Shown: positions 20,777 to 32,625 of the stretch, in pieces
Numbering within the stretch: the stretch's first letter is position 1
Layout: each line of letters begins with the position of its first letter
From: Treponemataceae bacterium
GTDB taxonomy: Bacteria > Spirochaetota > Spirochaetia > Treponematales > Rectinemataceae
Reading direction: 5' to 3'
DNA length: 64,000 bases
Assembly: GCA_963667725.2 (NCBI GenBank)
Contig: CAXXHO010000005.1
Span: 1,248,001-1,312,000 of the forward strand
Translations under genes and position numbers: made by a program
Notes under the pieces: model-generated
Seen by the model: the letters and a program-made list of their open reading frames with translations, nothing else
Databases searched by the model: none
What the model was told of the DNA's origin: nothing

Positions 20777-22093
20777 TCATTCCTCTTCCGCGTTGCGGTT
20801 CACTTCGTTGGTTCTGCTCACCATGACCTTGTCTATTCTGTTGCCGTCCATGTCCACTATTTCGATATGAAAGCTGTTCCATTCGCAGGACTCGCCCACT
20901 TTGGGGATCGAGCCCATGCATTCGAGCACGAGGCCGGCCACGGTATCGTAGGCGTTGGCGTCGAATTTTTCCTCGTCCAGCTCCATGGATTCGGCGAACT
21001 CCGCTATGGCGAGGGTGCCGTCCACGAGGAATGAGCCGTCTTCCCGCTCGACGACGCCTGGCACTTCGTCGGAGTCGTTCTGGGCGAGTCCCGCGACGAC
21101 GGATTCCATGAGATCGCTCATCGTTACGAGGCCGGAAACGCCGCCGTATTCGTCGACGATCAAGCCGGTGCTCGCCGCGTTGTCTTTCAGTATGGAGAGA
21201 GCGCGCAAGGCCGATATGGTCTCAGGTATGAGGACGGGCGGGCTCAGGTGGGCCCTGATATCGATGCTGCCTTCGCGCACGAGGGTGGCGAGGGCTTCCC
21301 TGACGTTGAGCATGCCCACGATCCTGTCGAGGTCGCCTTCCATGACGGGCAGGCAGGCGAAGTTGGCGTTCGCCACCAGTTCTTCCTTGGTCGTTTTATT
21401 CCCGTCTTCCAAATCCAGGGCCAGGACGTCGGTGCGCGGCGTCATGAAGGTCGTGACCCGCCTGTCGTCCAGGTTGAGGACGCCCTCCACCATTTCCTTT
21501 TCCGAGTTCTCGAAGATGCCCGATTCCGCGCCCTCGGCTATGAGGATCTTGACTTCATCTTCGGTGACGTCCGGTCCCGGGGCGCGCGCGAAGCCGAGGG
21601 TTCTGACGATGAGCGATGTCGCGCCCGACAGGAATCTGACGAGGGGATCGAAGATGATGCTGATGATGGAGATAGGGCGAATGATGGCCGCGGCGACCTT
21701 CTCGGGGCGAGAGAGGGCAAGGCTTTTCGGCACCAGTTCCCCGAGGATGACAGAGAAGAGCGTGGTGAGGATGACGATGATTACGACCGAAAGCGGTTCG
21801 GCGATGCTGGCGACGAGGGGAAAGCCCGAAAGCCAGAGGCTCATGCTGCGCGATATCGTCGCTCCGCCCACGGCGCCGGTCAGAATGCCGATGAGGGTGA
21901 TCGCCACCTGTATGGCCGACAGATATCTGCCGGGCTGCTCCGCGGCGCGCAGGGCAAGCAGATAGTTTTTTCTGCCCTCGTCCGCCTCGTGGCGGAGTCT
22001 GGCCTTTCGGGAGGATACGATCGCCATTTCCGAGAGAGAAAAAAAGCCGTTGAGGAGAATGAGGGCCAGAATGAGTATGAGTTCAGCGATCAT
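20777..22093 (-). CDS. HlyC/CorC (CNNM + CBS + CorC) family protein
   Basis: LNGFFSLSEMAIVSSRK, GELVPKSLA, MTPRTD, VDEYGGVSGLVT, VDMDGNRIDKV. Confidence 0.93.
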   Translation of the reverse strand: MIAELILILALILLNGFFSLSEMAIVSSRKARLRHEADEGRKNYLLALRAAEQPGRYLSAIQVAITLIGILTGAVGGATISRSMSLWLSGFPLVASIAEPLSVVIIVILTTLFSVILGELVPKSLALSRPEKVAAAIIRPISIISIIFDPLVRFLSGATSLIVRTLGFARAPGPDVTEDEVKILIAEGAESGIFENSEKEMVEGVLNLDDRRVTTFMTPRTDVLALDLEDGNKTTKEELVANANFACLPVMEGDLDRIVGMLNVREALATLVREGSIDIRAHLSPPVLIPETISALRALSILKDNAASTGLIVDEYGGVSGLVTMSDLMESVVAGLAQNDSDEVPGVVEREDGSFLVDGTLAIAEFAESMELDEEKFDANAYDTVAGLVLECMGSIPKVGESCEWNSFHIEIVDMDGNRIDKVMVSRTNEVNRNAEEE

Positions 22094-22329
22094 GGCAGGC
22101 CTCGAGGCTGTGCTTGGAAGAATATGGCCGGCGCCTCAGCGAGGCGCCGATGTGACTGAAGGGATCGGTTTCCGGAGACGGGGGTTCCGCGGTGTCGGAT
22201 GCGTGTTCGTTCATGGGTCCAGAATACCAAATAATCGAGGCCTCGTCGAGACCGGCTTCGCTATCGACGTCGATAGCGACGACGCTCCCTACCGTAGTGA
22301 AAAATAAAAACTTGTTGTATAGTTCCCGC

Positions 22330-24432
22330 ATGCTGAACCGATTCGCCGTCCTGATCTGCGCCCTGGCCTTCTGCCTGTTGGGCGCATCCGCCCAGAACGT
22401 TGACGCGGCATTTCCCGCTGACGATACCTTCAGGGTCATAGCCGACTCGATCTCCATCGGCAGGGAAGAATTTTCCGCCCGTCTCGACGAGATCCGCGCC
22501 GAAGGACGCGAGCCTCTCGGCCTCGTCCTCGCGGGTGGATCGGCGCGGGCTTACGCTCATATCGGCGTCATCCAGGTGCTTGAAGATGCCGGCATCAGGC
22601 CTGACTTCATCGTCGCCAACTCTATGGGCGCCGTGGTCGGCATGCTTTACGCCGCCGGAGTATCCCCTGGCACGATCGCCCAAATCGTAGGAGCCGTTCC
22701 CCCCGAATTCTATTTCAACCTCGTTCTCCCCACGAAAGGCGGCATAATCAACGCCGATCCCTTTGTCGGCGCCGTAAAGGAAATGGTGGGAGATCTGGAT
22801 CTCTCCGATACTCCGATACCTATCATCGTGACGGGCGAAGACCTGAGGACCAGGCGGCTTGTGGAGCTGTCAGCGGGAGAATTTTCCAAAGCCATGACGA
22901 CAACCTTCGCCATGCCGGCGATTTTCGAACCGGTTCCCTTCGGGGAATTCCTCCTCGTCGACGGCGGATCGACCAACTTGGTGCCGGTCGAGATAGCCGC
23001 GAAGTATTCCTCTCTTCTTATCGTTTCCACCGCCTTCTACAACAAGAGCATGAACTACGGCAATCTTCTGTCCGTGCTCAGCAGGACCTTCGATATCGGG
23101 AAAACGAGATCGGGCATCGAGGCGCTGCTCGCGGTCTCGCCCATCGTCATCAGAAATGATGTCGAAAATATTTCTTACATGCAGTTTTCCAGCCCAGCGG
23201 CCATCATCGAGCGGGGAAGGGAAAGCGCCTTGGCTTCCATCGACGAAATACTCGGCGTACTGCCCGCAACGTCCAAAAATAGGCGGATGCCGCCCGAGCT
23301 GATCGAAGCCAGGGCAAGGTATGACCTCTCAATTCCGCGTACCCTCGCCCGGCTGAGGCGGGGGGCCTTGCCCGACGTTGTTCCTTCGGTGCGATACAAA
23401 CTCAGATACAAGCTTTTTGATATGTTTGAGCGTTCGGCGATGGAGCTGGACAGTCAAATGTACGGCGGGCTGGCGCTGTCGGCGGCGGCCGGCATGGTCA
23501 GAGCTTCGGTTTCCTCGATAATGGGGCTGTCGGGAGACCCCGGGCGGCAGTGGGCGCTTACGATGGGCATGCGGGCCAATCCCCTCGATACCTTTCTCAC
23601 CGAGGCCGAGTTGAGACTTTGGGGCGATTTCAGTTCACTTCCCGCGTTTTTTCTCGAGCCCGACAGCCTCGAATTCCTGGCCGATCTTTCCTGGTCCTCG
23701 AAGGGCGAGGACCTCGTCCTCCGGCCCTCTCTGAGCGCCTCCCTCGATTACGCCCTTGACTCGGGGGCTCTCGGCTGGGAAACAAGGGCCGAAGTGGCTC
23801 TCGACGCGGGACTCGGCGACAGGCCTCTCCTCCAGGGAACCTGGGCGGGGTTTGTGTCGGCAAGAGCGGGCGCCTTTGCCGACACGCTGGCCGAGCCGGC
23901 GGGCTCGCCACGCTATGGTCCCGAAATGACGCTGAAGACGGGCATTGCCTATCTTGGCGGCACCAATTTGGGCGGCGCCGCTTCTGGTAGCGCCAATTCT
24001 GGCGCCGCCAGTCCTGGCGGCGCCGCCTTGAGGGGAAGGGTGACGGGGCGGTTCGATATGTCCGGCAGGGGGCTCTCGCTCGAGCGGGGCGAAGCCTATC
24101 GGGGAAACGCCCTAGCGGGCGCGGCGCCCATCGTCATCGCCGCTAACATGGAACTCGTCTGGCTGGCGAAATCCCTCGAGTTCGACGCGGCCGAGCTATT
24201 CCTCGTCAAGAACATGGAATTGGGTCCATATTTCGACGCCGTCTGGCTTGCGGGCGGCGGCTCCGGTTCAACCCTGAAGCCTGATGCCTTCAGCCTCGGG
24301 CTCAGCTACGGCACTACCCTGAGTTTCGCCGGCTTGACGCCCATCGATCTGTCGCTTTTCCTGGGCTTGGACAATACGGGATATCCGGTTTTCGGCGTCA
24401 GGGCGGGAAGGCTTTTCCCCGCCGTCAAGTGA
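22330..24432 (+). CDS. Exported patatin-like phospholipase with a C-terminal beta-rich domain
   Basis: Signal peptide; LAGGSARAYAHIG, ANSMG, VDGG; C-terminus amphipathic and strand-like. Confidence 0.85.
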   Translation: MLNRFAVLICALAFCLLGASAQNVDAAFPADDTFRVIADSISIGREEFSARLDEIRAEGREPLGLVLAGGSARAYAHIGVIQVLEDAGIRPDFIVANSMGAVVGMLYAAGVSPGTIAQIVGAVPPEFYFNLVLPTKGGIINADPFVGAVKEMVGDLDLSDTPIPIIVTGEDLRTRRLVELSAGEFSKAMTTTFAMPAIFEPVPFGEFLLVDGGSTNLVPVEIAAKYSSLLIVSTAFYNKSMNYGNLLSVLSRTFDIGKTRSGIEALLAVSPIVIRNDVENISYMQFSSPAAIIERGRESALASIDEILGVLPATSKNRRMPPELIEARARYDLSIPRTLARLRRGALPDVVPSVRYKLRYKLFDMFERSAMELDSQMYGGLALSAAAGMVRASVSSIMGLSGDPGRQWALTMGMRANPLDTFLTEAELRLWGDFSSLPAFFLEPDSLEFLADLSWSSKGEDLVLRPSLSASLDYALDSGALGWETRAEVALDAGLGDRPLLQGTWAGFVSARAGAFADTLAEPAGSPRYGPEMTLKTGIAYLGGTNLGGAASGSANSGAASPGGAALRGRVTGRFDMSGRGLSLERGEAYRGNALAGAAPIVIAANMELVWLAKSLEFDAAELFLVKNMELGPYFDAVWLAGGGSGSTLKPDAFSLGLSYGTTLSFAGLTPIDLSLFLGLDNTGYPVFGVRAGRLFPAVK
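23956..24030 (+). repeat. Degenerate 15-bp tandem repeat (x5) within the patatin gene
   Basis: GGCGGCACCAATTTG GGCGGCGCCGCTTCT GGTAGCGCCAATTCT GGCGCCGCCAGTCCT GGCGGCGCCGCCTTG. Confidence 0.65.
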
Positions 24433-26194
24433 TATTCTCGTCTTCGCCGTAGGCCGCGTCGTTCTGCGTCAGGGGATTCTTGAAGCGCCAGAGCAGAAGG
24501 GCGATAAAGACCAGGTTGATGACGCTGGCCGCCGCGAAAAGGTTCCATTTCGGATTGCCCGAGGCCACCGACCCCACATAGCTGTGAAGCTTCACCCCAA
24601 TGGTGTAAAGCCTGTCGTCGGTGAGAAAAACGAGGGGAACGAGGAAGCCGTTCCAGGCGGAGATGAAGGCCGTCATCATCGCGGCGGCCAGGGCCGGGGC
24701 GCTCAAGGGAGCGATGATCTTCAGCATATAGGCGAGGGGCTTCATGCCCTCGAGCGCGGCTTCCTCCTCATAGCTCGGAGGCAGGCGATCCAGGAAGGCC
24801 TTCAGCGTAAAGAGTGAAAAGGGCAGGGCGTGGAAGATATACACCGTGACGAGCGGGACATAGCCGCCCAGCAAGCCCATAAGCCTGAAGAGAATGAAGA
24901 GCGGAATGAGGGAATGGACGCCGCCCGTCATTCCTAGCGCCTGCAGGAAGGCGAAGGCCTTCGCCGAGCGCCTGGCCGTCGTCCGCGACAGGGCAAGGGC
25001 CGCCGGCAAGGTGAAGATCGGTAACAAGAGGGCTGTGGTCGCCGCTACCAGGAAGGTGTTGAAAAAGTATCGCAGTATTCCCTCTTCACGCAGAATGGTG
25101 GCGTAGGGACGAAGCGAGATGAAACGCGGAAGAAGCCCGTCTATATAGACTGCCGACAGATCCGAGAACGAAAGCCACAGGACAACGTAGATTACGAGAA
25201 CGGCGGAAGCGACGGCGAAAATTCGCGCCGTCCAGCAGGCCGCTTTCCAGGCGAAGGCCGCCGCTTTGCCGCCGATGTTCGGCCGTACCATCCGCTCTTT
25301 CCCTTCCGGCCGCTTTCTGAGGCGAAACCACAGCCCAACCAGCAATATGACGAGCATTCCCACCGCGACGGCGTATGCCGAAGGTATGCCGTAGTCATTT
25401 TCGTTCCTAAAGGCGTCATAGAGAAAAATTTCGAGCGTGGTCGTCGCCCCGACAATATTTTTTTCGGTGATGCCGCCGATAAAGGGCGGTCCTCCGGCCG
25501 TCATCAGGAAGGGCACCTGGAATTCCTTGAACGACCTCACGAAATCGAGAGCCCACATGACGATGAGCGTTGTGCGGGCTTGCGGCGCCCTTATCCATCG
25601 CGCGATCGTCCAGGAATCGGCCCCGTCCATACTGGCGGCTTCTGTCATGCCGCGGTTCACGGCGCGGAGCGACGCGTAGAGGGCAAACACGACAAGGGGA
25701 ATGCTCAGCCATACGTCGACGGCAAGGGCGGCGACAAAACCGGCCGCTGGATCGGTGAGAAGATTCAGCTCTCTCCCCAGCATGACCGAAAGAATCGACT
25801 TTCCGCCGCTGCCGTGGATGATCATCCGCCAGATGGGCACCGAGATGAAGGATGGCACTCCCCAGGGCACGAGAATGGCCGCGAAAACGATCTTGAAAGA
25901 CTTTCCCGCGTCCAGGAGGACGGAAGCCAGGATGAATCCGATGAGAACGGAGAGGCTGGCCGAGAGGAGGGCCCATCCCAGCGTTATGCCCAGGGAAAGA
26001 ACGAATGCCCTGTCCTCGACGAGGGCTCTGAAATTTTCGAGACCGGCCCAGGCGGCCTGGCCGTAGCTGTCGTGGTAGAGGGAACTGACCGCGGCGGTAA
26101 AGAAGGGTAGTATGCCCGCGGCCAGAACGAGAAAGGCGAGAGGAAGGATGGCCAGTTTCGCCGCCCTGGATCCGCCGAGGATGGACGCCTTCAT
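24425..26194 (-). CDS. Fused two-domain ABC permease (MalF-like + MalG-like)
   Basis: GLENFRAL, PWGVP, EAASMDGA (EAA loop 1); FFNTFLVA, EEEAALEG (EAA loop 2), FISAWN. Confidence 0.88.
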   Translation of the reverse strand: MKASILGGSRAAKLAILPLAFLVLAAGILPFFTAAVSSLYHDSYGQAAWAGLENFRALVEDRAFVLSLGITLGWALLSASLSVLIGFILASVLLDAGKSFKIVFAAILVPWGVPSFISVPIWRMIIHGSGGKSILSVMLGRELNLLTDPAAGFVAALAVDVWLSIPLVVFALYASLRAVNRGMTEAASMDGADSWTIARWIRAPQARTTLIVMWALDFVRSFKEFQVPFLMTAGGPPFIGGITEKNIVGATTTLEIFLYDAFRNENDYGIPSAYAVAVGMLVILLVGLWFRLRKRPEGKERMVRPNIGGKAAAFAWKAACWTARIFAVASAVLVIYVVLWLSFSDLSAVYIDGLLPRFISLRPYATILREEGILRYFFNTFLVAATTALLLPIFTLPAALALSRTTARRSAKAFAFLQALGMTGGVHSLIPLFILFRLMGLLGGYVPLVTVYIFHALPFSLFTLKAFLDRLPPSYEEEAALEGMKPLAYMLKIIAPLSAPALAAAMMTAFISAWNGFLVPLVFLTDDRLYTIGVKLHSYVGSVASGNPKWNLFAAASVINLVFIALLLWRFKNPLTQNDAAYGEDENIT

Positions 26195-26201
26195 TCCTTC
26201 C

Positions 26202-27629
26202 CTAGAAAACGAGATTGATAGACTGGATCTGCTTTACGTTCTTGATCCCTTCGGGCAACCTGGCGATGTTCTTGTCCCAGACGAGGACGAGGGGGAATTC
26301 GCTGGGATCGAGGCCAGCCCCATCCTTGTACATGGCGAGTATGACTTCGTCGTTGGCGTCCAGTTCGCGCGAATCGAGGGTGATCTTGTAGCCGTCGACG
26401 GCGGTTACCTCGACTTTGTAGCCGGCCTTGGCCGCCGCGCTGTCATAAGCATGGATGCTCGTGTCCTGCTTGTGCGGCTGGTAAGCGGGGTCGTCGGCGT
26501 AGCCCAGCAGAAGGTGGAGGGGGAAGCCGGTGTAGCTGCCGCTTATTCCCTTGCGCTCGAAAACGACTTCCTTCTTGTGGCAGCTCACGCAGGACTGCAC
26601 CGTGGCGCGATCCATCGTTCCGTTCATTTTCCCCCCGTAGGAGACGGCGAAATCCTTGAAGTCCTTCTGTTTCACGATGATGCGCTTGATCATCTTGACC
26701 GAGGTGTGGCCGTCGATGTTGGGATCGTTGGGACCGATTTTCACCGTCCTTATGTAGCCCGGATCCTTGGGGAGCCAGTCGCCGTCCATCCTGAAGGCCA
26801 GTATCCAGGTGCCGTCCGCCTCGTCGAGCACTTGCTTGCCGGAATAGGTCATCTCATAGCCGTCGGTGGCCGCGAAGGTTATGGAATCGTCAGCGGAAAG
26901 ACTCATGAAACGGGCCAGGATAGCCCTGAGGCCCACCCCGCCATAGACATTGGAGTACTTTGTCCCGGCGCTGGTCGTGAAGCTTCCCTTGTTTTCCATA
27001 TATGCCTGATCTTTTTCCAGGTCGGCGAGGGTGTAGGAGGCTTTCACTCCGTTTATATCCAGCTCGAGCGCGAAGGAGGCGGCTTCCGAAACCGCCTTGG
27101 ACGCTGCGAGGCTCGTGGTTATGGAGGCGATCTGCTTGACCCAAAGGCCCTTGGCCGTGTCGCCGACGACCATGGGTCTGTCGAGGGGCTTGCCGGCTTC
27201 GGTATCGGCGAGGATCAGCGCGTCCTGGGCGACATCCTTCGTGGAGAAGGTGGCGGAAAAACCGTCGGCCGCCGAGAGGGTGACTTCATAGCCCTTGGCC
27301 CAGAGTCCGGCGTCGAAGGCATAGGGATGGGAGGAGTCGGAACCGTCGATCATGGCGATAGCGAGGCGGAGGGGAATGCCTGAATAGGTTGTCGCCACGC
27401 CTTTTTTATCCACCGTTTTCTGGACATAATCCTTGCCCGCGGCCTTTATCTTCTGGTAATAGGACTGGGACAGGCTGTCCTTCCTCGCGCCCGCCAGTTC
27501 GATGCTCCAGCCCGTCTCCGCCGCCGAGGCGGCCGATGTCGAGTCCGCCGCTTTCCGCGATACGCATCCGGCGAGAACGAACGCGATGGCGACCGTGATG
27601 GCGAGAATGGTCCTCATTCGTCTAGGCAT
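26202..27629 (-). CDS. Lipoprotein with three tandem repeats resembling the molybdopterin-dependent oxidoreductase (sulfite-oxidase-like) domain
   Basis: Lipobox LAGC; each repeat has YxG(I/V/F)xL...AxDG(F/Y)...ILA...G..L...VKxIxxI; AAGGAG SD. Confidence 0.7.
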   Translation of the reverse strand: MPRRMRTILAITVAIAFVLAGCVSRKAADSTSAASAAETGWSIELAGARKDSLSQSYYQKIKAAGKDYVQKTVDKKGVATTYSGIPLRLAIAMIDGSDSSHPYAFDAGLWAKGYEVTLSAADGFSATFSTKDVAQDALILADTEAGKPLDRPMVVGDTAKGLWVKQIASITTSLAASKAVSEAASFALELDINGVKASYTLADLEKDQAYMENKGSFTTSAGTKYSNVYGGVGLRAILARFMSLSADDSITFAATDGYEMTYSGKQVLDEADGTWILAFRMDGDWLPKDPGYIRTVKIGPNDPNIDGHTSVKMIKRIIVKQKDFKDFAVSYGGKMNGTMDRATVQSCVSCHKKEVVFERKGISGSYTGFPLHLLLGYADDPAYQPHKQDTSIHAYDSAAAKAGYKVEVTAVDGYKITLDSRELDANDEVILAMYKDGAGLDPSEFPLVLVWDKNIARLPEGIKNVKQIQSINLVF

Positions 27630-27656: not shown

Positions 27657-29189
27657 TTACGGCTTCGAGCCGCCGCTTATGGTTCCCAGGTTGGCGTCGA
27701 TGAGACGGCGCGCTTCCGCGAGGGCCGCGTCCGGCTTCATGCTGCCCGCGAGTATGAATCGAAGAATTTTCCACATAGTGTTTTTATAGGTGCTATAGCC
27801 TGAGCTTGGGGGTATGACGGCGCCTATCTCCGCGCTTCTTGCCAAGATGGCGTGATAGGGGCCGTCGCCTTCCGTTACCTCCCAAGCGTCTGAATTCGCC
27901 GGGAGTTTGGAGAGGGCGGTCGAAAAGCGCTGCTGAACCCCGATGCCGGACAGGTGCTCGAGGAGCCTTCGCGCGGTGACCGGGGATTGGGTGGAGCGCG
28001 TCATCGCGAAGCCTTTGAAATCGAGGAGGGGCGCCATGGGCTTGCCCGTGGACGAAACCACCGGATAGGGCGCGACGCCGAAGTCCAGGCCTATCCGTTC
28101 GAACTCGGGGATGGAATAGGACCCGCTCAGGATCATGGCGATTTTGCCCGAAGCGAAACGCGCCACCATGGCGTCGCGCTCAAGGGGCTCCAGGTAGCCT
28201 CGGTCGATCATCGAGAGAATCCAGGATATGGCCTGTCTGGTTCCACGATCGTCGGGACGGACCCCGCCGTCGGCATCGGCGATGGAAGGTTTTCCGAAGC
28301 CCATGGCTATGGGTAAAAGCCAATACGCAGAATAGACATTCCAGGAAATCGGCGTTCCGCCGCTCCGGCTTATCCGCGCGGCCATGGCTTCCAGATCGTC
28401 GGTCGTCCAGGTCAGGGCGGGCGGAACGGGGACTTGCTTTCTGTCGTAGAAAACCAGCTGCGCATCGAAATAGAAGGGAATCGCCCAACGTCGGCTTTCG
28501 GCGCTGAAGGCTGTCGCCCCATTCTCCACGATATGAGAGACGTCGATTCGATCCAGGGGCTGGAGGGTCTGCGCCGCCACGAGGTCAGGAACGTTGTCCG
28601 ATTGGATCATGAGGAGATCGGGCGTGCGCCCGCCGCCGCGCTGGACGGCCAGAAGCTTGGACCTCGTATCCGGTATGTCCACCGCTCTGACTTTCGCGCC
28701 GGAGAGCGTCGCCCAACGTTGGATTTCCGCCTTGAGTTCGGGGACGCCCTCCCAGGAGAGCCAGATTTCCAGTTCCCGCTCGCTGGCCCGGTCTCCGCTG
28801 ATGCTCACGGAACTGATGGAGGCCACCCTGGCATCCGGCGCGAGCAGGTCCCATCCTCCGGAGGACGATTCGACGATATAGAATCCGGAGAGTCTGTCCG
28901 CGAGGTTGTCTCCTATCCATATTTTTGCCCCGGCCGAGCCGGCGCACTCGATCCTCCAGGCTTCCACGAGGGGGGGAAGCAATTCGGAGATGGCGAGGCC
29001 GCGTTCCATGGAGTTCTTCGAGGGGATGGAATATGAAAGCGCGCGTAGCGCGGCGTCTGAGGGTATGGTTTTTGAGCTGCCGTTAAGGCGCAGATCGAAC
29101 GCCCAGGCAGAGGCGTGAAGCGCGAAGGCGAGGCCTAGGGAGAGAACAACCGTCCGGAAACCAGGTCCCGGCGGGTTTGAGCGAGTCAT
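27657..29189 (-). CDS. Family-1 (MalE-like) extracellular solute-binding protein with an extra N-terminal domain of about 110 aa
   Basis: Signal peptide; PDLLMI, LQPLD, WAIPFYFDAQLVFYD, FASGKIAMILSGSY, DFGVAPYP. Confidence 0.85.
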   Translation of the reverse strand: MTRSNPPGPGFRTVVLSLGLAFALHASAWAFDLRLNGSSKTIPSDAALRALSYSIPSKNSMERGLAISELLPPLVEAWRIECAGSAGAKIWIGDNLADRLSGFYIVESSSGGWDLLAPDARVASISSVSISGDRASERELEIWLSWEGVPELKAEIQRWATLSGAKVRAVDIPDTRSKLLAVQRGGGRTPDLLMIQSDNVPDLVAAQTLQPLDRIDVSHIVENGATAFSAESRRWAIPFYFDAQLVFYDRKQVPVPPALTWTTDDLEAMAARISRSGGTPISWNVYSAYWLLPIAMGFGKPSIADADGGVRPDDRGTRQAISWILSMIDRGYLEPLERDAMVARFASGKIAMILSGSYSIPEFERIGLDFGVAPYPVVSSTGKPMAPLLDFKGFAMTRSTQSPVTARRLLEHLSGIGVQQRFSTALSKLPANSDAWEVTEGDGPYHAILARSAEIGAVIPPSSGYSTYKNTMWKILRFILAGSMKPDAALAEARRLIDANLGTISGGSKP

Positions 29190-29317
29190 TATTCCCCCTT
29201 TTCAAGCATGGAAGGCTGAACCGTTTCCGGCGCAACCCGATGGCTTTTAGTCCATGGACTTCCGAGGCTCATTGTCATGATGCCGCGTATCTTTAGGAGC
29301 TAAGGCTCGAAGGAATT
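29190..29317 (-). ncRNA. Moco RNA motif-like leader (molybdenum/tungsten cofactor riboswitch candidate)
   Basis: Minus strand AUUCCUUCGAGC..CCUAA..CAUGG.CUAAAAGC-CAUC-GGGUUG.CCG-GAAA-CGG.UCAGCCUUCC..UUGAAAAGGGGGAAU-A-AUG matches the remembered Moco motif architecture (P1 over SD, CCUAA in P2, GAAA-capped P4, GCCUYCC-P5); judged by eye. Confidence 0.75.
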
Positions 29318-29326
29318 CTATGGCTG

Positions 29327-29355
29327 ATTCTATGGCGCCCATTCGCAGGCGTCAA
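29327..29355 (-). promoter_or_regulatory. Sigma70 promoter driving the Moco-like leader
   Basis: TTGACG-N17-TAGAAT, placing the TSS just 5' of P1. Confidence 0.75.
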
Positions 29356-29397: not shown

Positions 29398-29428
29398 AAA
29401 AAAAAAGGCGCCCCGGATGGGCGCCTTT
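29398..29428 (-). terminator. Intrinsic terminator of the upstream outer-membrane protein gene
   Basis: AAAGGCGCCC/GGGCGCCTTT stem with a T9 tract on the minus strand. Confidence 0.85.
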
Positions 29429-29461
29429 CGTATCCGATCCGAATCCGATCGGGATCCGACG

Positions 29462-29962
29462 CTACAGTTTCAGGAGGACGCCGATATAGGAGGCCTCGAG
29501 GCCGGTTTCGGCGTTGATGGCGAAGTTCTCCGAAAGGAAATAGCTCGTGCCGCCGATCGTGTTGAAGCCGACGCTGGGAAGGATCGAAAGACCAAGACCA
29601 AAGTACGAATCGAAGTTGCCGATCCAGGCGAGTTCGCTGGGCAGGTCGAGGGCGCCCCAGTTGAAGTGGAGGGTGCCTACCGCGCCTACCGCGACGTCCA
29701 GGGTGCTGCCGATATAGAGTCCGGCGCGGCCGGCTACGCCATAGGTGAAGGGAAGTTTTTCGGCGATCGTGAACTTGCCGATGGCGTATTCAACGCCGCC
29801 GCCGACCGAAAGGCCGTACCAATAGCCAAAACCGATGCCGACATTCGCGTTTATAGAACCGGGATTAATGAGCATGCCATTTTTGGAATAGTTAGTGGTT
29901 TCCGCGGACGCGAAACCAACGACGACGCAGAGAAGCGCGACAAGCACCGTGAACTTCTTCAT
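29462..29962 (-). CDS. Small exported protein, probable outer-membrane beta-barrel
   Basis: Signal peptide ending ASA-E; Gly/aromatic amphipathic strands; AAGGAG SD. Confidence 0.7.
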   Translation of the reverse strand: MKKFTVLVALLCVVVGFASAETTNYSKNGMLINPGSINANVGIGFGYWYGLSVGGGVEYAIGKFTIAEKLPFTYGVAGRAGLYIGSTLDVAVGAVGTLHFNWGALDLPSELAWIGNFDSYFGLGLSILPSVGFNTIGGTSYFLSENFAINAETGLEASYIGVLLKL

Positions 29963-30258: not shown

Positions 30259-31095
30259 ATGTTTCATGCGAAGCGGCCGGAACAGGCCGCATTACTCAAC
30301 CCTCTCGTACTAGTCCAGACTATTCCCCATTTGACATCGCCAGTTCCTCCCACTAATTCCCCGGCTTTAGCCATAAGGGATATCAGTAAAAGATTCGGTC
30401 CTCACGCGGTTCTGGACGGCGTTTCGCTCTCCATCCCGGCTGGAAGAATTTACGGCATCATCGGACGGAGCGGAGCGGGCAAGACCACCCTCATCAGGAT
30501 CGCCTCGCTGCTCGAGCGCGCCGACGGCGGCGAGATTTTCTATTCCGGGGTTTCAGTATCCGGAGCCAAGGGAAAGGAACTGATAGAGGCGCGCAGAAAA
30601 GCTGGGTTCGTGTTCCAGAACTTCAACCTTTTCTCCTCGAGAACCGTCGCGGGCAATGTGGCTTTTCCCCTGGAAGCGGCCGGCTGGAATAAAACGGCCA
30701 TTCGCGAAAGGGTGGAGGAGCTCGTGGAGCTCGTCGGGCTCTCTGACAAGGCGGACAGGCCGGCCGGCCGGCTTTCGGGAGGCGAGCGTCAGCGCGTCGC
30801 CATCGCCAGGGCTCTCGCTAACAGACCGCAGATACTCTTCTGCGACGAAGCTACCAGCGCTCTGGACCCCGAAACAACGAGGTCCATCCTGGATCTGATC
30901 CAGTCCCTGCGCCAGCGTTTCGGTCTCACCGTCATGATGGTTACTCACCAGATGGAAGTGGTCAGGAGAATCTGCGACGATGTCGCGATCATCTCCGACG
31001 GCTTGATCGTGGAGAGCGGCCCCGTGGCTTCCGTTTTTTCCCGTCCAAGCAGCGAAACCGGACGCCGTCTCGTGGCGGAGGTCAATCATGCGTGA
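30259..31095 (+). CDS. metN: Methionine ABC transporter ATP-binding protein (short form, no C-terminal NIL domain)
   Basis: GIIGRSGAGKTT, FQNFNLFSSRTV, LSGGERQRVAIARAL, CDEATSALDP, THQMEVV; start uncertain (TTG 30331 possible). Confidence 0.88.
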   Translation: MFHAKRPEQAALLNPLVLVQTIPHLTSPVPPTNSPALAIRDISKRFGPHAVLDGVSLSIPAGRIYGIIGRSGAGKTTLIRIASLLERADGGEIFYSGVSVSGAKGKELIEARRKAGFVFQNFNLFSSRTVAGNVAFPLEAAGWNKTAIRERVEELVELVGLSDKADRPAGRLSGGERQRVAIARALANRPQILFCDEATSALDPETTRSILDLIQSLRQRFGLTVMMVTHQMEVVRRICDDVAIISDGLIVESGPVASVFSRPSSETGRRLVAEVNHA

Positions 31096-31753
31096 AATCT
31101 TTGACCTCATCGCCAGGCCGGTTCTGGAAACCATCCTCATGGTGATCGCGTCCACGACGATCGCTGGACTGTTCGGCGGTTCCATCGGTCTCGCGCTCTA
31201 CTTCATGTCGAACGAAAGGCTTTCCGAACATTCGGGTCAGCTTTCGATCGTGAAGAAAGTCGCCGACCGGGTGATCAACACCCTGCGGTCGTTTCCCTTC
31301 GTCATTCTCATGGTCCTTGTGCTTCCTCTTTCACGCCTCATCGTGGGGACGAGCCTTGGGACGGTGGCGGCCATCGTGCCTCTTTCCATCGCGGCTATGC
31401 CCTTTGTGGCGCGCATCGTCGAATCGTCGTTGGCCGAAATCGATGGCGGCATCCTCGACGCGGCTCTCTCTTCGGGAGCCACGAAGGCCAGAATTCTCTT
31501 CGCCATTCTCGTGCCTGAAGCCCTCCCTTCGCTTATCGCCGGTCTCACGCTCACGATGATCAACCTGGTGGGTTATTCCGCCATGGCAGGGGTCATCGGA
31601 GGGGGCGGTCTCGGCGATCTGGCCATCAGATACGGCTACCAGCGTTTCAGGACCGACATCATGATCGCATCGGTGCTCTCGATCATCATACTCGTCGAGG
31701 GAATCCAGATGACGGGCAACAGGATCACGAGGAATCTGAAGCTCAAGCGCTGA
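31088..31753 (+). CDS. metI: Methionine ABC transporter permease
   Basis: RSFPFVILM, GTSLG, GYSAMAG.IGGGGLGDLAIRYGYQRF. Confidence 0.93.
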   Translation: MREIFDLIARPVLETILMVIASTTIAGLFGGSIGLALYFMSNERLSEHSGQLSIVKKVADRVINTLRSFPFVILMVLVLPLSRLIVGTSLGTVAAIVPLSIAAMPFVARIVESSLAEIDGGILDAALSSGATKARILFAILVPEALPSLIAGLTLTMINLVGYSAMAGVIGGGGLGDLAIRYGYQRFRTDIMIASVLSIIILVEGIQMTGNRITRNLKLKR

Positions 31754-31809
31754 TCAGACAGTCCCCAATGCCCCCTATGGCGGCATAATCTCATCGCAGG
31801 AGGTTCGCT

Positions 31810-32625
31810 ATGAACCGGAACAACCGTACTGTATCCTTTATCCTGGCGACGGCATTGGCAATCGCCGCCGTCTCCGTCCCGGCCTTCGCCCAGACCGCTC
31901 AGAAGCCCGTGACGCTCAAAGTCGGCGCCAATCCCATTCCCCACGCCGATCTGCTCAACCTGGTGAAGGCGGATCTTCTCGCCCAGGGCATCAAGCTCGA
32001 GATCGTCGAGATCACCGACTATGTGACGCCCAACCTTCTTCTCGCCGAAAAGCAGCTCGACGCGAATTTTTTCCAGCACACGCCCTATCTCAACAATTTC
32101 GCGGCGGAGCGCAAGCTGGCCCTGGAACCCGCCGGCCAGGTATTCGTCGCGCCTCTCGGCCTCTATTCCAGGAAATACAAAAAGTTGAACGATCTTCCCG
32201 TCGGCGCCGTCATCACCATACCGAACGATCCGACTAACGAAGCCCGCGCCCTCATACTTTTCCAGAATAAGGGGCTCATAAAGCTGGCCGCTGGCTCTGG
32301 GCTGAAGGCGACGATACGCGACATCACCGAGAATCCCAAGAAATTCCAGTTCAAGGAAATCGAGGCTCCGCAGCTTCCGAGAACCCTGGACGACGCCGCC
32401 GCCGCCGTCATCAACGGCAGCTTCGCCACCCAGGCCGGTTTCTATCCCTCTAGGGACAACCTGATGATCGAAGGCGCCGAGTCTCCCTATCCCAATATTC
32501 TCGCCACCCGCAAGGGTGACGCCGACGATTGGCGCGTAGTGGCCCTGCTCAAGGCCCTACAGTCCGAAAAAGTGCGGCAGTATCTCGAGAACAACTATAA
32601 CGGGAGTTTCGTGCCGGCCTTCTGA
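31810..32625 (+). CDS. metQ: MetQ/NlpA family substrate-binding protein
   Basis: LKVGA..PHA, DYVTPN, DANFFQH.PYL, IPNDPTNEARAL, QLPRTLDD, SPYPN. Confidence 0.92.
   Translation: MNRNNRTVSFILATALAIAAVSVPAFAQTAQKPVTLKVGANPIPHADLLNLVKADLLAQGIKLEIVEITDYVTPNLLLAEKQLDANFFQHTPYLNNFAAERKLALEPAGQVFVAPLGLYSRKYKKLNDLPVGAVITIPNDPTNEARALILFQNKGLIKLAAGSGLKATIRDITENPKKFQFKEIEAPQLPRTLDDAAAAVINGSFATQAGFYPSRDNLMIEGAESPYPNILATRKGDADDWRVVALLKALQSEKVRQYLENNYNGSFVPAF

Follow-up and report, generated by a model that had tools for sequence, protein, structure and literature searches.

A Moco/Tuco riboswitch precedes a three-gene ABC transport operon

The window analyzed here is a stretch of 64,000 nucleotides from a Treponemataceae bacterium. 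Its minus strand carries a three-gene operon preceded by a structured RNA (positions 29179-29324) that belongs to the Moco/Tuco riboswitch family (Rfam RF01055) and is of the type that lacks the P3 stem. Gene 1 (27657-29189, minus) codes for a 510-amino-acid solute-binding protein of the MalE fold, which has a signal peptide and an extra N-terminal domain of ~105 amino acids. Gene 2 (26202-27629, minus) encodes a predicted lipoprotein of 475 amino acids composed of three homologous domains of the sulfite-oxidase/PruR type (residues ~39-175, 184-325 and 326-475), and gene 3 (24425-26194, minus) encodes a 589-amino-acid ABC permease in which MalF- and MalG-type halves are fused. There is no ATPase gene in the operon, and we infer that a MalK-type ATPase is shared from elsewhere.

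A consensus scan identified one intrinsic-terminator-like hairpin (29403-29429, minus; shuffles yield a mean of 0.5) that closes the upstream gene and parts the operon from it, and one sigma70-like promoter (29327-29355, minus; shuffles yield a mean of 0.1) with 10 of 12 consensus matches and a 17-nucleotide spacer. Transcription is predicted to start near position 29320, just ahead of P1, with ~10 nucleotides between the end of the promoter and this stem. Because the promoter ends at 29327 and the terminator-like hairpin closes the upstream gene, the leader is likely to contain little beyond the aptamer.

Several neighboring genes were considered as possible members of the operon. The upstream gene (29462-29962, minus), which has its own terminator, encodes a secreted protein of 166 amino acids that yields no Pfam or NCBIfam match, and its homologues adjoin the operon in ~10 close relatives in either orientation. 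Genes for a patatin-like phospholipase with a long C-terminal region (22192-24432, plus) and for a CNNM/CorC-family protein (20777-22093, minus) lie downstream. All three keep their place beside the operon only in close relatives and are not counted among its parts. A MetN/MetI/MetQ-like methionine ABC operon (30259-32625, plus) has no upstream riboswitch at the Rfam gathering threshold.

The RNA is a P3-less aptamer whose P1 stem holds a ribosome-binding site

RF01055 is the sole Rfam family matched in the window. The alignment scores 54.1 bits (E = 3.7e-10; gathering score of 36) and spans model positions 1-135, with the aptamer proper occupying 29316-29191 on the minus strand. It bears out the original prediction of a Moco-type riboswitch from which P3 is missing. 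P1 is formed by nucleotides 29316-29309 and 29198-29191. P2 (29243-29306; 64 nucleotides) includes the two halves of a tetraloop receptor (29297-29293 and 29256-29252; CCUAA / AUGG), in which an A-C combination replaces the usual closing pair. The P3 columns of the alignment are deleted, and a linker of only 4 nucleotides (29242-29239) leads straight into P4 (29213-29238), which is capped by a GAAA tetraloop (29227-29224). P5 consists of 2 base pairs and is followed by three A nucleotides and then by a G-rich ribosome-binding site that serves as the 3′ strand of P1. The hallmarks of the family are therefore present: a GNRA loop on P4, a tetraloop receptor in P2, and P1, P2, P4 and P5 arranged around a conserved junction.

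The original prediction also called attention to an extended P2 carrying an extra hairpin, and regarded this apical insertion, with a presumed GNRA loop, as unusual. The hairpin (29266-29284, minus) is real, and it is an extension of P2 rather than a P3 stem because it is located between the two receptor halves; it does not align as a canonical P3. Its GACA loop does not conform to GNRA because the third position is C; in this RNA it is the GAAA of P4 that does. A congener (G180) carries GGAA at the corresponding apical loop. Nor is the insertion out of the ordinary, since P2 ranges from ~35 to 73 nucleotides among orthologous leaders whose apical sequences are unrelated, which argues for tolerated peripheral variation. 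A P3 stem or a conserved extra element at this location is ruled out by the alignment together with this apical variability. In four other leaders (L113, L116, L118 and L134), long insertions are found not in P2 but on the 3′ side of P4, which represents a second tolerated insertion site.

Covariation among 47 leaders is consistent with this architecture: 81% of cells are paired and two-sided changes occur at 29 of the 36 pairs, although these counts lean toward the structure because the leaders were pre-selected as P3-less parses and are mutually related. The observed pairing was reached by none of 500 shuffles, and slid controls are 37-53% paired. A P5 pair is C-G in 24 of these leaders and U-A in 21. 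Folding energy, by comparison, was dropped as evidence for the RNA. The minus strand gives a z score of -1.29 that is matched by 20 of 200 shuffles and is not significant, the plus strand gives 0.16, and the computed minimum free energy structure does not form the P2 stem of the RF01055 family. Support for the RNA thus comes from the covariance-model score and covariation, and the RNA taken alone is unexceptional within a known family of cofactor-sensing switches.

The placement of P1 supports the proposal, made in the original prediction, of a translational OFF switch in which the ribosome-binding site is sequestered by P1. The G-rich site is located on the 3′ strand of this stem (29191-29198), 4-9 nucleotides before the AUG of gene 1 (position 29189), a sigma70-like promoter lies just upstream, and no terminator was found between the aptamer and the AUG. 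Such sequestration of the ribosome-binding site within P1 is also a feature of the E. coli moaA riboswitch. In the ensemble computed without ligand, this site is already paired (unpaired probability of 0.01-0.04), and no ON-state fold was identified.

The same set of elements (P1, P2 with receptor, P4 with GAAA, P5 and no P3) is described for the P3-less class (PMC2408646; PMC11725836). The available portion of the first of these reports does not show direct binding, even for E. coli moaA (PMC2408646). The present example differs from that class in several respects. It is not located ahead of synthesis genes, an oxyanion transporter or a known enzyme, no synthesis pathway was detected in its genome, and its apical P2 is longer.

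The operon and its leader are conserved

The lipoprotein gene was located in 78 GTDB loci from Spirochaetota and Thermotogota, and from Bipolaricaulota for the lone lipoprotein. The order of genes for binding protein, lipoprotein and permease is preserved in 65 of these loci; nine are cut by contig ends, one is rearranged, and three carry the lipoprotein alone. A distant lipoprotein homologue that is accompanied by neither binding protein nor permease was noted in L133, L135 and L136 (Bipolaricaulota/Acetothermia and one Thermotogaceae).

Of the 59 loci that have at least 170 nucleotides of sequence upstream of gene 1, 58 carry an aptamer there, and 56 of these RNAs are P3-less. These figures derive from a script that found a P2-P4 linker of 3-5 nucleotides in 48 leaders and of 27 nucleotides in two (Thermotogaceae L110 and L111), mis-parsed five and missed four. 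The nine failures were read by eye, and comprise eight P3-less aptamers and one leader (L108) without an aptamer.

The operon proteins combine MalE-type and sulfite-oxidase/PruR-type folds

Gene 1 matches only the SBP_bac_8/SBP_bac_1 and MalE families, with no match of the ModA or TupA type. In a fold search it scores Z 41.5 with MalE, and its nearest solved relatives bind sugars. The operon has the make-up of CUT1 importers such as MalEFGK, in that it encodes a MalE-fold binding protein and two BPD_transp_1 permease domains resembling MalF and MalG and lacks an ATPase gene of its own. It departs from these importers in its low identity (18-25%, far below every family cut-off), in its fused permease halves, and in the presence of the extra N-terminal domain, the accessory lipoprotein and the cofactor riboswitch. 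The extra domain of gene 1 is possibly a degenerate fourth domain of the SUOX type. Comparisons with such domains give hhalign E values of 0.19 and 0.003 and an Atlas value of 0.77, which we treat as a lead only, and its model has the strand and helix order of SUOX-type domains, with the fold search filled by MalE matches.

The lipoprotein matches PF00174 in 36 of 36 members, and its domain 2 has homologues in domains 1 and 3 (hhalign 89% and 93%). Because a profile search of PDB sequences gave only matches with E values of 0.4-1, to PruR and sulfite oxidases, fold searches were needed for a closer comparison. The predicted model (pLDDT 86) matches Moco domains of the sulfite oxidase family as well as PruR. 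Domain 2 of this model superposes on 133 of 138 PruR residues with Z 16.1 and an rmsd of 2.5, and sulfite oxidase is tied at Z 16.0. Across four PruR structures (PDB 7kp2, 7kom, 7kos and 7rkb) the corresponding ranges are Z 14-16 and rmsd 2.5-2.9.

PruR is described as a periplasmic pterin binder that lacks the Mo-ligating Cys, and as a single domain of ~170 amino acids with a Pro-Trp motif, encoded beside a dcpA-type diguanylate cyclase gene and acting in signaling (PMC11194511). It shares with the lipoprotein a small, secreted SUOX-fold domain. Gene 2, in contrast, encodes 475 amino acids in three domains of a predicted lipoprotein and lies in an ABC operon under a cofactor riboswitch; identity to PruR is 16-20%, and the Pro-Trp motif was not seen at the hairpin turn of gene 2. 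The sulfite oxidase family (SorA, SoxC, MsrP/YedY; PF00174) is likewise related through the fold (Z 12-16) and through the Pfam match in domain 2. Unlike these enzymes, the lipoprotein is triplicated, has no dimerization or haem domain, and has no conserved Cys in domains 1 and 2. At the location in domain 2 where this residue would be expected, judged by an ungapped count from an anchor rather than by a structural test, there is an invariant Thr-Thr-Ser-Ala-Gly turn.

Domain 3 carries a near-invariant Cys350-His351 at a helix end (26577-26582, minus), which hhalign places near the Cys of MsrP only with a gap, and which is a possible metal ligand. The pair belongs to a CxxCH motif that was considered as a haem c site and rejected, because Gly commonly replaces its first Cys and three of 36 members lack the motif.

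These similarities allow for a reading in which the operon imports a sugar or another small substrate, the lipoprotein acts outside the cytoplasm as a Mo/W enzyme or sensor, and the switch only couples transport to cofactor status. The MalE fold, the MalF/MalG-like permease and the potential of Cys350-His351 to ligate a metal would suit this arrangement. So would the finding that putative sulfite-oxidase genes of Syntrophomonas wolfei are preceded by P3-less RNAs, as indicated in the available portion of that report (Regulski et al., 2008; PMC2408646), and the presence of the P3-less aptamer upstream of a pruA gene in the host genome (G000) and in G096, G180 (twice) and G062. Regulation alone does not name the cargo because, as this last case demonstrates, the P3-less aptamer also heads a gene that is not involved in transport. 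On the other hand, domains 1 and 2 lack a conserved Cys, and under an OFF switch a cofactor-using enzyme would be shut down precisely when cofactor is plentiful. We consider this reading unlikely, since it also leaves unexplained both the association of the operon with loss of cofactor synthesis (18/21 versus 10/64 genomes, as detailed below) and the source of cofactor for these cells. The S. wolfei ‘sulphite oxidase’ genes that follow P3-less RNAs may encode proteins related to the lipoprotein.

The host genome encodes Mo/W enzymes without detectable cofactor synthesis genes

For the assembly that contains the window, completeness is 97% and contamination 6%. Five contigs (C1, C2, C4, C6 and C7) are syntenic duplicates (72-77% identical) of regions of C5, and likely come from related strains or species that were binned in. 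The core of the genome was therefore taken to be C3 plus C5, two contigs of 2.36 and 1.37 Mb that total 3.73 Mb. On this core there are four AOR-family genes, five of the XDH family and two of the DMSOR family, none with stops inside the matched regions, and a check for AOR-family genes suggested by the original prediction is thus positive. Two further AOR genes lie on C1 and C7, contigs that are 76% identical syntenic duplicates of C5, and the count of six was reduced to four accordingly.

By contrast, family searches of this genome gave no match to MoaA, MoaC or PF00994 (MoeA/Mog/MoaB). A tblastn search with E. coli and family-level queries, TupA included, returned no orthologue-level match, the best being a partial moaA alignment at E ~5e-5. 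Family searches for TupA and ModA were also negative, and the only PF12849 match adjoins phoBR. The sole trace of modA is a frameshifted 5′ part at the end of contaminant contig C7. This fragment adjoins a gene for a PadR-like regulator, and its position corresponds by synteny to the xdhC-yqeC-yqeB region of C5, from which modA is absent. Searches for MoaD and MoaE are uninformative because E. coli queries found neither in four pathway-bearing clusters of relatives; a MOSC-domain gene is present in three of these four clusters.

Genes for late maturation are present, encoding MobA-, MobB-, MocA- and XdhC-like proteins, YqeB and YqeC, of which only YqeB and YqeC pass family cut-offs. All steps up to and including metal insertion are without detectable genes in this genome, whereas later steps are kept. 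Because many Mo/W enzymes are present and genes for synthesis of the pterin cofactor were not detected, the operon likely imports ready-made cofactor.

The lipoprotein tracks the loss of cofactor synthesis

We examined 221 genomes of the order, nearly all of them MAGs and at least 85% complete apart from rounding. Among these, AOR was found in 85, MoaC in 88, MoeA in 84, TupA in 60, ModA in 51 and the lipoprotein in 29. All but one of the lipoprotein carriers (28 of 29) have AOR, and the lipoprotein is present in only 1 of 136 genomes without AOR. It is present in 18 of the 21 AOR genomes that lack both moaC and moeA compared with 10 of the 64 that have either, a contrast for which a Fisher p value overstates the significance because related genomes are not independent. 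The contrast is also seen within each of two families and within the genera g10, g29 and g48. By hand count, the lipoprotein is present in 17 of the 18 AOR genomes from which tupA and modA are missing as well. The exception (G177) is a 96% complete genome with four AOR matches and no match to moaC, moeA, tupA, modA or the lipoprotein, which could mean either that its assembly has a gap or that salvage proceeds by a second route.

These absences amount to one event rather than four, because tupABC, moeA, moaA, moaC and mog form a single cluster in relatives. This organization raises the concern that auxotrophy is an artefact of incomplete MAGs, or that a non-homologous synthesis route exists, in which case the cargo would be unconstrained. 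Most of the genomes are fragmented, the modA fragment of the host assembly sits at a contig end, and one genome (G204) looks like such a gap. This genome is the sole carrier in a third family and was counted as pathway-less, but is doubtful given a tupA fragment at a contig end together with modA. The extent of assembly gaps is bounded by the AOR genomes that lack the lipoprotein, of which only 3 of 57 are missing both markers; the corresponding figure for AOR genomes that carry it is 18 of 28. Moreover, the core of the host genome is contained in two contigs of megabase size, and the markers are lacking from all three sampled genomes of the same genus and from all six of genus g7. We therefore regard this explanation as very unlikely.

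A second set of 45 carriers was drawn from the more distant of the 78 loci, as a sample with neither a control group nor completeness figures. AOR is present in 42 of them, and 26 lack both markers, 25 of these having AOR. Four Thermotogota with gene 1 beside the lipoprotein all lack both markers. Synthesis genes (moaC and/or moeA) are kept by 10 of the 29 carriers in the order sample and by 19 of the 45 in the second set, and for this reason the operon cannot be considered limited to auxotrophs. Candidatus Marispirochaeta associata JC231 (L097), for example, combines the operon with moaC/moeA. In two pathway-less genomes (G028 and G032), the copy of RF01055 that heads the operon is the only one found.

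The possibility that the AORs are decaying relics was ruled out for one clade. In this clade the median dN/dS is 0.125 in 11 pathway-less genomes versus 0.128 in 10 pathway-bearing genomes, and the Cys and DxxGxDT motifs are intact. Purifying selection thus still acts on these AORs.

A candidate importer of a pre-formed metal-pyranopterin

The transporter of such cells could in principle carry the metal, the pterin or the finished cofactor. A further type of importer for tungstate or molybdate oxyanions that replaces TupABC or ModABC would be in keeping with the common placement of Moco/Tuco riboswitches ahead of oxyanion transporters, with the 17 carriers that have neither tupA nor modA, and perhaps with the invariant Thr/Ser/Gly-rich turn of domain 2. 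We judge this to be highly improbable. The same genomes lack pterin scaffold genes and MoeA, such that free oxyanion would be unusable, and the binding protein matches MalE-type rather than ModA or TupA families.

Import of a simpler pterin or of a precursor without metal (cPMP or molybdopterin), followed by addition of metal through an unrecognized route, is quite unlikely as well. In its favor, cPMP is the most stable intermediate according to the available portion of one report (PMC2408646), and PruR, the best size-matched fold neighbor of the lipoprotein domains, binds pterins other than Moco in a short pocket (PMC11194511). With MoeA, Mog and both oxyanion-binding proteins missing in 17 carriers, there is no known step by which a precursor could be finished. 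Since completing the cofactor from a free oxyanion or from a metal-free precursor would require MoeA, the cargo is likely to be a metal-loaded pyranopterin.

We therefore favor the conclusion, as a probable one given the comparative sequence data, that the operon is a feedback-repressed candidate importer of pre-formed metal-pyranopterin (W- and/or Mo-MPT). According to this model, cofactor that other organisms of the anaerobic community release would be captured and shielded by the three pterin-pocket-type domains of the lipoprotein. The MalE-like protein would pass it on to the fused permease, with a shared MalK-type ATPase supplying the energy, and the MobA/MobB-, MocA- and XdhC-like proteins would mature the imported cofactor for DMSOR-, XDH- and AOR-family enzymes. 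Cofactor accumulating in the cytoplasm would then bind the aptamer, stabilize P1 and shut translation off.

Several observations weigh against import of finished cofactor. Free Moco is unstable (PMC9026282; PMC7849362), the pocket of PruR was judged by its authors to be too short for Moco in the available portion of their report (PMC11194511), and the nearest solved relatives of the MalE-fold product of gene 1 are sugar binders.

Relation to known salvage systems and implications

The proposed arrangement has precedents for other cofactors. Cobalamin (BtuFCD) and thiamine transporters constitute riboswitch-controlled salvage systems, in which an OFF switch regulates an importer in organisms lacking synthesis. 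The operon shares this logic of a cofactor-sensing OFF switch over an importer where synthesis is lacking. For Moco itself, C. elegans takes up the pre-formed cofactor from its diet (PMC7849362). A 2021 review treats this animal as the only known exception, with an unknown mechanism, to the view that Moco is too unstable to be shared (PMC9026282). We found no described bacterial importer of Moco or Tuco in a mostly open literature, and the supplements of PMC2408646 and PMC3766115 may list the operon. Thus the unit represents riboswitch-controlled ABC cofactor salvage for a cargo with no bacterial importer that we could find in print, and its main interest lies downstream of the RNA.

More broadly, anaerobic spirochaetes and Thermotogota probably include natural Mo/W-cofactor auxotrophs that scavenge finished metal-pyranopterin through a dedicated ABC importer derived from sugar transporters and equipped with repeated pterin-binding domains. 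If so, the operon would represent the first Moco/Tuco uptake system in bacteria, and the cofactor would be a cross-fed public good of anaerobic communities, like vitamin B12. Mo/W enzymes in genomes without moa genes would not be relics, which would change how Mo/W use is read from genomes, and the lipoprotein would offer a natural Moco-stabilizing protein. The operon supplies three named proteins and a built-in reporter for work on bacterial cofactor uptake.

P3 status is an unreliable guide to the metal in this order

P3-less RNAs made up 58 of the 176 members of the Moco family in 2008 and were correlated with Tuco genes (Regulski et al., 2008; PMC2408646), and the rule that P3-less RNAs sense Tuco has been applied to Eubacterium limosum RNAs (PMC11725836). 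The host genome carries three copies of RF01055. In addition to the copy that heads the operon, there is a P3-bearing copy (G000:C5:974706-974866, minus) upstream of ydhY-ydhV-ydhW and a P3-less copy (G000:C3:227131-227269, minus; 32 bits, which is below the cut-off) in the sense orientation upstream of the P5C dehydrogenase gene pruA. YdhV of this genome is 53% identical to E. coli YdhV, and the E. coli type of this enzyme prefers Mo (PMC13328260). The pattern of these three copies fits the rule that P3 denotes Mo and its absence W, the second part of which was invoked in the original prediction.

This agreement does not extend to the leaders of tupA, the first gene of a tupABC-moeA-moaA-moaC-MOSC-mog cluster under RF01055 control in each of the five clusters read. 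By a script parse checked by eye (with L153 corrected by hand), 24 of 45 tupA leaders in the order are P3-bearing, nine are P3-less, one has an apparent remnant and 11 gave no parse. P3 is therefore present in 24 of the 33 classifiable leaders, and in all 15 of those from the family of the host genome. Its presence or absence divides largely by genus (L145-L149 and L152-L191). Because the tupA leaders break the rule, the inference from P3 loss to tungsten is unreliable in this order, where P3 status does not follow tupA. Among tungsten markers, the host genome has AOR-family genes but no TupA was found. XDH- and DMSOR-family enzymes mostly use Mo. We tentatively lean toward a preference of the aptamer in the window for tungsten, view recognition of either metal as nearly as likely, and consider a preference for molybdenum unlikely. 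Aptamers with and without P3 in one lineage provide a natural set for evaluating the rule proposed in 2008, from which the tupA leaders deviate.

The remaining leaders of these genomes suggest additional uses of the same aptamer. The P3-less RNAs ahead of pruA (L003, L005, L197, L199, L201 and L202) occur in two families, and the gene, named from its sequence, resembles those for NAD-dependent P5C (glutamate semialdehyde) dehydrogenases. By analogy with B12 switches, which control B12-independent isozymes, this switch may turn down an aldehyde dehydrogenase that needs no such cofactor whenever a W/Mo aldehyde oxidoreductase can take its place. The ydhY-ydhV(-ydhW) leaders of three genomes (G000, G096 and G062; L002, L004, L198 and L200) are P3-bearing, have a long insert in P5, and place the start codon well downstream of P1, and these RNAs could be ON switches for a cofactor-using enzyme.
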